From NCBI GenBank assembly GCA_051362555.1, contig CM120641.1:682001-746000 (forward strand): a stretch of DNA of 64,000 nt, given 5' to 3'. The position numbers and the translations under genes were made by a program. Within the stretch, counting starts at the first letter, position 1. Each line of letters starts with the position of its first letter. Shown in pieces: positions 33,101-37,957 of this stretch. The DNA is from Lingula anatina (Eukaryota > Animalia > Brachiopoda). Under the pieces are notes generated by a model. The model ran no database searches, had not been told where the DNA came from, and saw only the letters and a program-made list of their open reading frames with translations.

Positions 33101-36100
33101 ATCAGAATTGAATTTTAAAAATGCAGAATTCCGTGTTTCCATGGAAAAAGCTCATGTCTGGTGCAGACCTCCACCAAGAAAGTTCAATTCTCATTATTTT
33201 TTATGAATGATAAATTGTGGTAGTTGAGATCACATCCATTGCACAACACAGTAACAAGTGGTCTAAATTCCTGGATCCAGATGGTAATCTGGACTGCTAC
33301 CAAAAATCCATTCACTCTTCAGTTATCCCATTACTGAACCTATCATGAAAATTTCATCAAAATCCACCCAAAACTTTTTTTAGTGAGATTGGGGACAAAC
33401 AATCAGAAGGAGTTGAAAACATAATCTTCTTGTACTTGATAATAAAATTAGTTATATTAAACAGGGAAGAGACCAGTCCTCACTGAAAAAGTAGAAAAAT
33501 TGGCCAGGGGTCCAGGGTACATGATTCACAAAAATGACCCAAATGAACCTGAAAAAGTCTGAATTCTAACAAAAGTTGGAAAAGTCTCATCAGTGTATTA
33601 TAATGAAATCACAGTTGTACATACTTTGTGATTTAACAGGACAGAGCAGCCTGGTTCCAGAGCATCTTTATCCACAAAGGAGAGAATGCTGACGTAATGT
33701 TCACTGCCTACAGATGTGGACACAATAGCGTGGTTATCGTCTATGATCTCCTCCAGGTTACCCACTGACATAGGTGTGCCGCGGAGGTCGTCCACCTTGG
33801 ACCGTTCCTCCTAAAAAACAAAGAAATAGTTTTATTAATATCATTGCCATTAACAGGATGACAGTCTGAATTGGTTTTAAGTTTGCATGATGAGCAAGAG
33901 ATTCTTTTGCCATTTTCAACTGACCACTATTTCTTCTTCCAAGCTTTACCCTTGATTTTTTTTAGTTTTCATCAAAACATTTACATGATTTTGGTTCAAA
34001 AAGATAGTCTCCAACTTTTTTTATAGCTTGCAAAAAAGAAGGAATAAACAACCACATGTTATAAATAATGACATGATACTTACCATAGGAACTAGAATCT
34101 TTCTATACAACCACTAGTATATAAAGTATAACTGTGTCCTTAGATTGAAATGCTTGTTATAGCATGCATGTTAAACAGAATATATATATATACATATATA
34201 TCTGGGGTAGCGCTAGCAATTTTTTTGCTTAGCCAAATCACCACTTTTTTTGTTAATTTGTTATCAAAATGGTTATAATTTGGCTAAAACAAGTCAAATC
34301 AAGCCCTTTTTCTTTGGCCAATTTAAGTAAGTTTTAGCATTTGGCTAAATTGCTAGTGTTAGCGCTACCCCAGTATATATATCATAAGGTGCCTCAGATT
34401 TGCTGGCTTGCTTACGTCTTATATTTGACTTTGCCCTTGAAGAGAACAAACTATATCACCATCTTGGATGTTTCAGAGACATAGTTAAAAACCCTCATCA
34501 AACATAATCACCAACCACTGTCCACACCAACCTCTTGCTTTTCTTCTTGGGGTTTGAGTCTTTCTTGATTTCTGAGAAACTCTTCCTCCATTAGCAAATA
34601 GTCCTTGATACGCTCTAGTTTCAGCAACTTTAATCGACATCTTGTGTGGGGTGTAACTGCATTGAAGAATGTTATATTATATCAATTTCCACTGTCATTA
34701 CCAATTCTCTTTGTATATAATTATGGTTATGAGGCGAAAATGCAGTAGTTTATTGGATGAGAATACCATCACTGATCAGGGGAACAAAAAGAGTGTCAAA
34801 ATAACCCAATTCAGATTAATTTACTTTGACATGAAAAACACTCTTGTACTTATTGATGTACGATAAATTCCATAGCCTGTGCCAAGAATTGCAATTACAG
34901 TTATTGAAACAATTTCTGCCTAATAAGTAATAATGTAAGTGAGAGTACATTACCTTGTGGTAACTTCATAGCAGCATCAGGTCCTTTCACCTTTTTCTTC
35001 TTCTTCCCCACCCTTGTAGGGATTGGGGGCTCATATTTTCTCTTTTTATCCTAGGGAAAAATCACATGTACATGTACAAATACATGGGATTTTGTAACTT
35101 ATAAATGAAATGCTGATCAAAAATACATTGAAAACAAACTTGCAACTGGTCAACATTAACTTCAAGCCATTTTTTTTCTTGGGGGGGGGGGGGGGGGGGG
35201 GGGGGGGGGGGGGGGGGGGATGAATATTAAACTGCTAAAAATAATGATGCAACATCTGTTCCAGTTATTGATTGGTTCAATTCTCAGGAACAAAATGACT
35301 GGCCCCATATAACTGGCATTACATTAACTATTTCATACAATTATTCAGCACATTTACCTTGTCATCCTTCTTATCTCCATCTCTTCCTGCTCCAGCTCCA
35401 GACTGGTTCTGACCCTGAAAACAGAACAACAAAGTTTCTTAAGATTGAGCCTGAATTAGTTGTGACAGCACCGTATATCAATAGTTTAGGTATATCACAA
35501 TCCACTAGGAGCGCCACAGTAGTAACTATCCAGGGGCAGTGAAGTGCAAAACTGAGACTGGCCTGCTATCAGCTCGCCTATGACAAACTTTTTTTAAATC
35601 TCTCTTTTAGCACCGTGTTAATAAACAAATAAAAGCCATTTACTAGATAAGCTGTAAATCAAAGAGTAAATTCCGGTCACGTGATTTTCCGTGTTGCAGT
35701 CTTAGAGAACTTTGATTTGAGGACGTTTTTAAGTTTTGCCTCGACAAAATGTTAAAAAATTCAGATAAGTACTACATGGAAGTTTTTGTAATTTATTCTG
35801 TGTAAACTACTAAAGTTAATGAAATTTGCAATTTTATGCTAAAAAATCATGAAAATTAAACCATGCGAAGTATAGTTTATTTGATGCGCAACATTTATAG
35901 TACATGATCTGCACCGAAGCCATCCCAGCCATGTGATTGTGCAGTCGCCAATTTGGGTTAGTTTTTGGGTCATTAGATTAACATAGAGCCCTAATTGGTC
36001 ATAAGCATTTTGAGCTGCAGCTACAGCTGAGTGATTACTGCTGGTCAGTGGTCATGGGTCTTTAGCTGAAAAGTGTGGACACTTTTGGTGAAATTTTGCA

Positions 36101-36652
36101 GTTAAAATACTTCAATATCTATGTTGCTTGTAGGGATATTTTAAAAATAAAATTTTAAGAATTCATCTGTTTTTTGCATTACTTTTCAGAAGATATAAGT
36201 ATTTTAACTTTCTGATCAGTTTGAAAAATTTTCTGATATACATAAATAGTTTCAAAAGCAGACTTGAAAAGACCTTCCACTCTAACTGCGATGAACCCCC
36301 ACACTCCAGGGATATGGCTACAATAACTCACAATAGAACCAAGGGAAACAAACACAAGAGAGCCGACAGCTGGGGCTCTTGGGTGAGTATTTTGACGTGA
36401 CCCATCATAGGTTGCATAGGTAGGCAGTTGCAAATGTGATTCAGCAAAAAATTGGAGAAAAAATCGGGAGACGAATTGAACCGGCATTTAAAAATATCTT
36501 CTATTACCATGAATATCTAACCATTATTTCAAGTTTAGTTCAGAAAGTACCAATCCGAAACTATGTTATCACTTTTAAGCTTTCACTTTAAAATAATTTC
36601 AATGGGATACTACAACCAAATACACAATAACAAATTAGAGCGTACTCACCAT
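30168..36652 (-). CDS. PSMC1: 26S proteasome AAA-ATPase regulatory subunit 4 (Rpt2), 11 exons, 441 aa
   Basis: Exons (minus): 36652-36650 (ATG|GTGAGT), 35414-35358, 35050-34954, 34656-34532, 33810-33625, 32812-32684, 32443-32347, 31951-31863, 31395-31198, 30866-30657, 30302-30168; total 1326 nt. Translation [55 protein letters not shown]; Walker A GQPGTGKT; Walker [31 protein letters not shown]-terminal HbYX tail PEGLYL. Confidence 0.97.
32240..32368 (-). repeat. 60-bp tandem duplication of the PSMC1 exon 7 end plus donor
   Basis: GTCCATAAAG at ~32240, 32300 and 32360; TCATTACCTGTC occurs twice. Confidence 0.85.
33254..33432 (-). mobile_element. Short Helitron/HINE-like non-autonomous element fragment
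   Basis: Reverse complement resembles the copies at ~59043-59238 and ~61958-62180 (CAAGGAGGTTATGTTTTCA 5' motif, hairpin plus CTRGTT end). Confidence 0.4.
34202..34373. mobile_element. 172-bp MITE in PSMC1 intron 4
   Basis: TIRs CTGGGGTAGCGCTA / TAGCGCTACCCCAG, inserted in a (TA)n tract. Confidence 0.75.
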
Positions 36653-37957
36653 TATGGAACTTCCACTCTAAATACATGTGCGCATGTCCCAATTCTTTGT
36701 CGATAGAGGTCACTGCTGTAAACCTCCCTTTGGTTATAACTCCTTGTCATAACCAAGATAGAACAAGTCCTTATCTTCATCCGGTGTGTTTATATGGTAT
36801 AAAAACCATTCTTAACATGAACGATCTGGAAAAGATATGGACTAACCCAGCTTCAATATCTGATAAGATAACTCAGACCTTAACCTATAAGTCTCTGCAC
36901 TCTGTATATCAGGACTAGTGGGAAAAATTAATGAGCAGCAGAACGGGTAACCAAAGGGAGGTTTACAGCAGTGACCTCTATCGACAAAGAATTGGGACAT
37001 GCGCACATGTATTTAGAGTGGAAGTTCCATAATGGTGAGTACGCTCTAATTTGTTATTGTGTATTTGGTTGTAGTATCCCATTGAAATTATTTTAAAGTG
37101 AAAGCTTAAAAGTGATAACATAGTGTCGGATTGGTACTTTCTGAACTAAACTTGAAATAATGGTTAGATATTCATGGTAATAGAAGATATTTTTAAATGC
37201 CGGTTCAATTCGTCTCCCGATTTTTTCTCCAATTTTTTGCTGAATCACATTTGCAACTGCCTACCTATGCAACCTATGATGGGTCACGTCAAAATACTCA
37301 CCCAAGAGCCCCAGCTGTCGGCTCTCTTGTGTTTGTTTCCCTTGGTTCTATTGTGAGTTATTGTAGCCATATCCCTGGAGTGTGGGGGTTCATCGCAGTT
37401 AGAGTGGAAGGTCTTTTCAAGTCTGCTTTTGAAACTATTTAGGTATATCAGAAAATTTTTCAAACTGATCAGAAAGTTAAAATACTTATATCTTCTGAAA
37501 AGTAATGCAAAAAACAGATGAATTCTTAAAATTTTATTTTTAAAATATTCCTACAAGCAACATAGATATTGAAGTATTTTAACTGCAAAATTTCACCAAA
37601 AGTGTCCACACTTTTCAGCTAAAGACCCATGACCACTGACCAGCAGTAATCACTCAGCTGTAGCTGCAGCTCAAAATGCTTATGACCAATTAGGGCTCTA
37701 TGTTAATCTAATGACCCAAAAACTAACCCAAATTGGCGACTGCACAATCACATGGCTGGGATGGCTTCGGTGCAGATCATGTACTATAAATGTTGCGCAT
37801 CAAATAAACTATACTTCGCATGGTTTAATTTTCATGATTTTTTAGCATAAAATTGCAAATTTCATTAACTTTAGTAGTTTACACAGAATAAATTACAAAA
37901 ACTTCCATGTAGTACTTATCTGAATTTTTTAACATTTTGTCGAGGCAAAACTTAAAA
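35727..37957. repeat. Near-perfect 1010-bp inverted repeat (arms 35727-36736 and 36948-37957, 211-bp spacer)
   Basis: Arms are reverse complements. I saw three substitutions by eye (right-arm positions ~37126, ~37442, ~37549). Mirror ORFs 36328-36510(-) and 37174-37356(+) are identical. Confidence 0.97.
36737..36947. promoter_or_regulatory. Putative bidirectional promoter spacer between the two mirrored first exons
   Basis: Lies between the divergent ATG|GTGAGT exons at 36652(-) and 37032(+). Each arm carries an NRF1-like CATGCGCACATG and an ETS-like GGAAGT just upstream of the ATG. Function is inferred from position. Confidence 0.5.

Follow-up and report, generated by a model that had tools for sequence, protein, structure and literature searches.

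SIGLEC11 and SIGLEC16 lie head to head, and their 5′ regions, 5′ untranslated sequence included, have been homogenised by conversion (PMC5701461). A comparable arrangement is described here in a stretch of 64,000 nucleotides (nt) from the brachiopod Lingula anatina (assembly GCA_051362555.1, contig CM120641.1, positions 682,001 to 746,000, forward strand; hereafter the window), in which a palindrome lies between the proteasome ATPase gene PSMC1 and an immunoglobulin (Ig)-domain membrane gene. Both loci combine a head-to-head order, apparent homogenisation of the 5′ region and an Ig V-set receptor, and a change of expression was proposed for the SIGLEC pair (PMC5701461). The partners there are both paralogous Siglecs, ∼9 kb apart, and the tract spans ligand-binding exons (PMC5701461). 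In the Lingula locus, by contrast, a proteasome ATPase gene acts as donor, the tract encodes nothing but the start codon and the arms stand 211 nt apart.

The flip/flop region of Saccharomyces chromosome XIV is similar in that its inverted repeats are homogenised within genomes and both orientations of the intervening sequence occur (PMC9731477). It comprises 24 kb with 15 genes between 4-kb repeats, and its recurrence was shown by long-read genomes (PMC9731477), whereas the Lingula locus would invert the promoter core only and the flip there is a candidate. Sex-chromosome palindromes and human inversions between inverted repeats likewise have arms >99% identical around a spacer, usually >10 kb long and with whole gene copies (PMC8600007, 10.1101/800185, PMC3961182). 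Unlike those arms, the Lingula arms are 1 kb long and lead into two unrelated coding regions.

The literature searched, mostly without subscription papers, held no description of this locus or of a similar case; supplements of genome papers could list the gene. Chimeric genes that recruited a promoter and 5′ exons (Sdic, jingwei, PIPSL) unite the 5′ part of one gene with the body of another, and the Lingula chimera resembles this kind. To our knowledge, none of the three persists as a tight mirror of the donor promoter with a near-identical first exon. Compared with the known head-to-head conversion systems, what is new is the pair of partners, a proteasome gene and an Ig chimera derived from it, and the candidate invertible part, a promoter core alone.

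The reading preferred here, with a probability of about 0.58, is that PSMC1 was partially duplicated long ago in head-to-head order, and that the palindrome, as the young core of this duplication, has been kept near-identical by repeated arm-to-arm copying. Mirroring of the 5′ end of a housekeeping gene would then be a route to a new surface-receptor gene, and a chimera could stay bound to the first exon and promoter of its donor long after the remainder had diverged.

Structure and copy number of the palindrome

The palindrome and the gene on its left comprise the following features.

30168 to 36652, minus strand: PSMC1 / Rpt2, 11 coding exons, 441 amino acids, no internal stop.
35727 to 36736, minus strand: left arm, made up of 87 nt of PSMC1 exon 1 to the ATG, 403 nt of low-copy intron 1 and 520 nt of repeat.
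36730 to 36756: short hairpin spanning the junction on the left; the 7 nt with which the arm begins reappear 13 nt into the spacer.
36737 to 36947: spacer, 211 nt, single copy at the locus; PSMC1 transcript start region in RNA run X12 (plus strand, first reads ∼36825-36840).
36948 to 37957, plus strand: right arm, content as in the left arm; precedes the Ig-domain gene and terminates within the repeat element.

The arms are 1010 nt each, align without a gap and differ at three positions (36135/37549, 36242/37442 and 36559/37125), in agreement with the approximate figure given in an earlier description made from the letters alone (the sequence-only reading). Each contains an 87-nt stretch with a lone ATG at its end (36652-36650 on the minus strand, 37032-37034 on the plus strand), followed by a GT donor. 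The ends of the spacer are unrelated to one another (28 of 100 positions match). The window is without any N, and long tandem arrays are resolved in it.

Two exons of the minus-strand gene match structures of 26S proteasome regulatory subunit 4 (E values of 6e-34 and 6e-17; 440-residue chain), which identifies it as PSMC1/Rpt2. The lone ATG at the end of exon 1 is the whole coding part of that exon. Further into the gene, a 59-nt tandem duplication (32236-32368) puts the end of exon 7 and its donor into intron 7, creating a second potential donor there.

Seven of the 21 listed read runs were examined. Three DNA runs, X1, X5 and X7, were compared with the window over 36220-36980; they represent three samples from as many studies, and the window may itself derive from X1. 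Copy numbers derive from read sets only. RNA runs were chosen by species label and X12 alone was informative, with 21 reads at the locus from about 6 in 100 of the run sampled; the X12 animal is diverged from the window and differs at many sites. X18 had zero coverage of exon 1, and X15 gave two minus-strand exon-1 reads without the X12 variants, which are not interpretable.

A 271-nt contig (36707-36977) consisting of the spacer and 30 nt of arm at each end was recovered from all three DNA runs. Both spacer ends joined to arm sequence is the pattern expected of a collapsed palindrome. The ratio of inner-arm to spacer depth was 1.9, 1.94 and 2.1-2.2 in these runs; in X6, measured on the right side, the inner arm had a depth of ∼87-90 and the spacer, by subtraction, ∼37. 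The palindrome is real, as the sequence-only reading had held, both junctions and the twofold inner-arm depth being present in 3 of 3 DNA runs, and inverted arms >99% identical around a spacer exist in real genomes.

Relation of the Ig-domain gene to PSMC1

The gene to the right of the palindrome starts at the mirror ATG in the right arm and continues as follows.

39823 to 39910, plus strand: exon 2, in which the 5′ half of PSMC1 exon 2 is fused to the 3′ half of exon 3; required for the frame from the exon-1 ATG.
39911 to 40205, plus strand: intron 2, 295 nt, homologous along its length to PSMC1 intron 3 (297 nt).
40206 to 40307, plus strand: exon 3; the acceptor and first ∼36 nt are likely from PSMC1 exon 4, followed by a hydrophobic, signal-peptide-like stretch.
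40998 to 41351, plus strand: exon for a V-set-like Ig domain (Pfam V-set match of 25.1 bits, E 2e-5, slightly missing the curated cut-off of 26).
43575 to 43622, plus strand: stalk exon.
45619 to 45752, plus strand: transmembrane exon.
58563 to 58742, plus strand: exon for the cytoplasmic tail; its identity with residues 244-303 of RefSeq isoform X1 is 90%.

The reading frame is open across the exons from 39823 to 45752 and is closed by skipping the first of them. Residues 1-243 of the model are identical to RefSeq XP_013382020.1 (LOC106152829 isoform X1, Lingula anatina). Judged by its sequence, this gene is a chimera: an inverted PSMC1 copy that spans exon 2 to the first part of exon 4 is joined in frame to the coding region of a membrane protein with an Ig V-set.

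The start of PSMC1 exon 2 is identical to the Ig-gene exon at 27 of 32 nt, the end of exon 3 at 41 of 52 nt, and intron 3 agrees with Ig intron 2 at 186 of 268 paired columns (∼69%); each of these identities exceeds all 500 shuffles. The intron homology covers the second half too, and neither score was attained in 500 shuffles. PSMC1 exon 4 and Ig exon 3 share an exact run of 11 nt, equally far from the acceptor in both and read in one frame (1 of 5000 codon shuffles); it lies just upstream of the hydrophobic stretch. Since homology continues into PSMC1 exon 4, the fusion point likely falls within Ig exon 3. Significance is limited to the acceptor side and the 11-nt run: the two exons do not align over their full length, 220 of 500 shuffles doing equally well in a comparison in which the PSMC1 exon was displaced by 2 nt. 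PSMC1 intron 4 shows no homology to Ig intron 3, for which 405 of 500 shuffles scored as high, and the signal-like stretch may or may not stem from the Ig parent (214 of 2000 shuffles). The sequence-only reading had named the duplicated exon 2/3 and intron 3, but had missed the reach into exon 4.

In the predicted product, a hydrophobic stretch begins at residue 41, and a transmembrane segment lies near residues 213-232. A Lingula paralog, P0005, has a like Ig domain and a plain signal peptide without any PSMC1 part, and the body of the Ig gene is 35% identical to it over 143 aligned columns. A search with residues 1-64, which returned one candidate only, found no other chimeric protein.

The corrected distance is ∼0.39 for the old duplication against 0.003 for the arms. 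These values indicate two ages of homology, with a homogeneous core inside an older, diverged homology, and agree with the contrast drawn in the sequence-only reading.

Two features of the chimera stand apart from this comparison. Residue 2 of PSMC1, Gly, is Asp in the copy (39823-39825), which would presumably remove the N-myristoylation site known for Rpt2. The tail exon (58563-58742) is only 90% like isoform X1 residues 244-303, though residues 1-243 are identical, and the last 101 residues of isoform X1 equal P0003, which is on another scaffold and has a locus number adjacent to that of P0005. The Ig-gene tail may have been duplicated a second time or homogenised.

Repeat element and probable direction of copying

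The outer part of each arm belongs to one element.

35485 to 36246: repeat in PSMC1 intron 1, resembling a miniature inverted-repeat transposable element (MITE-like, a label that is this report's own reading); short terminal inverted repeats; complete on the left.

In X6, bin depth over the arm repeat was 7,000-12,600, compared with 65-74 for single-copy contigs. The first exon and intron had been recognised as arm content from the letters, but the multicopy nature of 520 of the 1010 nt had been overlooked. The right-hand copy is without the outer 242 nt and the second end of the element, and no homology to those 242 nt was found in 37958-40400. At seven listed sites both arms carry the same bases, unlike most other copies of the family, which argues against two separate insertions; the right arm retains the base matching the terminal repeat at 37442. 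As the right-hand copy of the repeat is truncated whereas the left-hand one is complete, the young copying likely ran from left to right, and a single insertion into PSMC1 intron 1, later copied in that direction, is the likely history of the element. That one arm was overwritten from the other is supported, in this direction. Of the two options in the sequence-only reading, ongoing conversion and a second recent overwrite, the variable arm length described below leans to repeated events.

Beyond the right arm, another multicopy element (37958-38900), with a 207-nt internal repeat and minus-strand transcription in X12, abuts its outer end.

Arm variation among animals and a proposed history of the locus

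The extent of the arms differed between runs. In X5, a four-copy depth of 205.8 was found only over 36425-36736, and the depth outward of this was 105.7, equal to spacer level. The bin sums further require an unlisted record of depth ∼100 overlapping 36425-36454, with which predicted and observed values coincide (239.6 and 212.1). Together, the drop in depth and the required record indicate that about half of the arm copies depart from the reference near 36424. In run X1, a branch with a depth of 25 out of 87 departs at 36727 into sequence absent from the window. X7 contained an arm type diverged by ∼9% (over 372 nt, 31 positions differ and there are 16 gap letters), assembled as one contig with a depth of 57; its variants reappear in two intronic X12 reads. 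Localities under the species name Lingula anatina are themselves reported to be divergent (PMC8146825). Single-base contig alleles at 36242 and 36559 were excluded as conversion evidence because contigs merge bubbles.

The apparently differing tract ends favour repeated exchange, though later deletions or insertions would look alike, and the variable extent of the arms leans, without proof, to repeated conversion over a single overwrite. The locus would have formed in four steps. An inverted PSMC1 copy would first have come to lie in frame ahead of a region coding for Ig V-set, stalk and transmembrane parts, so that the old duplication supplied the start codon of the Ig-domain membrane gene; this is the step read directly from the sequence. 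The repeat would then have entered PSMC1 intron 1, and the PSMC1 arm would later have been copied to the Ig side in a tract ending within the element. With only 211 nt between them, the arms could pair in cis, and non-crossover repair would yield tracts of variable length. The spacer would serve as a shared promoter core holding the PSMC1 start site, a step for which transcript evidence is partly in hand, and a crossover would exchange the start sites of the two genes.

Several observations weigh against this account. The X5 node accounts for only ∼163 of 206 depth units, and the shorter X5 arms could be a later deletion and not a shorter tract. The diverged X7 type may be a single copy, which would make the duplication young and lineage-limited. 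No variant was shown to be common to both arms across animals, the contigs merging single-base bubbles. The transcript data come from a diverged animal. Of the X12 reads, ten are spliced out of exon 1, every one of them into PSMC1 exon-2 sequence (agreement 1), and Ig-type splices were 0 of 10 (chance 0.06 if a quarter were expected). RefSeq isoform X2 begins at Met51, without the PSMC1 part. Given the 0 of 10 splices and the X2 start, it is the reading frame and the annotated isoform X1 that speak for the right-hand exon 1 being used. The Ig exons had low plus-strand depth in X12.

The strongest alternative, doubtful but still worth holding, is a single recent, lineage-limited copy of the PSMC1 5′ end that overwrote or supplied the Ig first exon, the arms being shortened by later insertions and deletions. 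It would explain why the outer end of the right arm is abrupt within the repeat element, with a 16-nt slip adjoining, and why the X7 diverged arm type is one contig and X12 has no Ig-type splice. The hairpin and microhomology at the left junction also fit it: the fold has a z of -2.7, the arm 7-mer recurred within 30 nt of a junction in 31 of 10000 shuffles, and the hairpin may be a trace of the event that formed the junction. Rfam gave no matches in 35300-40400. Against a single overwrite, arm copies depart at two places in two runs (36424 in X5, 36727 in X1), and arms >99% identical and 211 nt apart are the setting of documented homogenisation (PMC9731477, PMC5701461).

An arm duplicated by the assembler, or an arm that is as a whole a fold-back transposon, is very improbable, for although multicopy repeat makes up 520 of its 1010 nt, both junctions and the twofold depth recur in every DNA run, the inner ∼490 nt are low-copy at ∼2× spacer depth and hold the spliced PSMC1 exon 1, and the multicopy element, limited to the outer 520 nt, is cut on the right side. 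The multicopy fold-back element that the sequence-only reading had set against its own proposal is therefore not what was found, the inner ∼490 nt being near two-copy depth.

Transcript start and orientation of the spacer

The spacer contains a sole TATAWAWR match at 36798 (plus strand) back to back with TATAAA at 36794 (minus strand). Plus-strand reads in X12 start ∼30 nt past the TATAWAWR match and ∼110-120 nt into the spacer, with the proviso that RNA-seq read starts differ from true start-site mapping. Four X12 reads connect the inner end of the arm (36736) to 36938 on the opposite strand, which is the right end of the spacer; five reads attain 36736 and none runs on into the left end. The only two first-mate-minus arm reads, spanning donor to inner end, must be joint reads, so at least two reads link the right half of the spacer, exon 1 and PSMC1 exon 2, a linkage drawn from binned depth tables and not from individual reads. 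In this one animal, PSMC1 transcripts arise from that half of the spacer which, in the window, lies towards the Ig gene.

This start position bears on three claims of the sequence-only reading. It had missed that the PSMC1 start, in X12, lies in the spacer and not in the arm. It had also expected the two mRNAs to have identical 5′ ends, and this is not supported, because transcription starts in unduplicated sequence and the extreme 5′ ends would differ (no exon-1 splice being of the Ig type). Its invertible spacer receives support that is direct yet ambiguous from the joining of PSMC1 to the Ig-facing spacer end. With the PSMC1 start inside the spacer, a flip would swap start sites and leaders and so would not be neutral.

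The spacer of X12 is thus opposite to that of the window, either by a true flip or by mis-orientation in the window. Mis-orientation, with all animals as in X12, has nearly an even chance and fits either history of the arms. Short reads cannot phase 211 nt between identical 1-kb arms, and the sole transcript start region observed, like the single complete TATAWAWR match, indicates the right end of the spacer, the one used by PSMC1. One published Lingula anatina assembly was made with Newbler, SSPACE and GapCloser, with short-read gap filling (PMC4595640). Against this, the window is free of N and its long tandem arrays are resolved, and a HiFi assembly of Lingula anatina also exists (PMC13121700); the window may come from either method. 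X12 is moreover unlike the window at many sites, which makes a true difference possible. A flip truly present between animals is tentatively entertained, with the odds somewhat against it; the remaining share falls to a lineage of X12 without the young arm.

If both spacer orientations exist, the locus would hold a very small, testable inversion that swaps the transcription starts of two unrelated genes. A naturally invertible animal promoter, with back-to-back TATA-type starts of unequal strength flipped by crossover between the arms, is unlikely. Were it true, haplotypes would differ in whether the proteasome ATPase gene or the Ig receptor gets the strong start, and conversion would keep the arms alike enough for continued flipping.

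Copies of the spacer core (36760-36935), ∼87% similar to it and with the TATA-like motif retained, occur at other places in the genome in X1, X5 and X7. A low-copy repeat family may be the origin of the promoter.

Other features of the window

A 1.5-kb element occurs twice (43741-45274 and 48973-51730), the copies being 92% identical; it is highly multicopy and transcribed in the RNA runs, and in the second copy about twelve 146-nt units are arrayed in tandem. Several copies of a short element that has internal inverted repeats and a very high copy number lie on both sides of the palindrome (22806-22942, 24835-25060, 39600-39765 and 41512-41738). Arrays of 159-161-nt repeats and larger segmental repeats (52884-63975) occupy the long introns of the Ig gene. 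Near the left end of the window, two long open frames of one gene were found on the minus strand, at 4373-5854 (494 amino acids) and 5997-7013 (339 amino acids).

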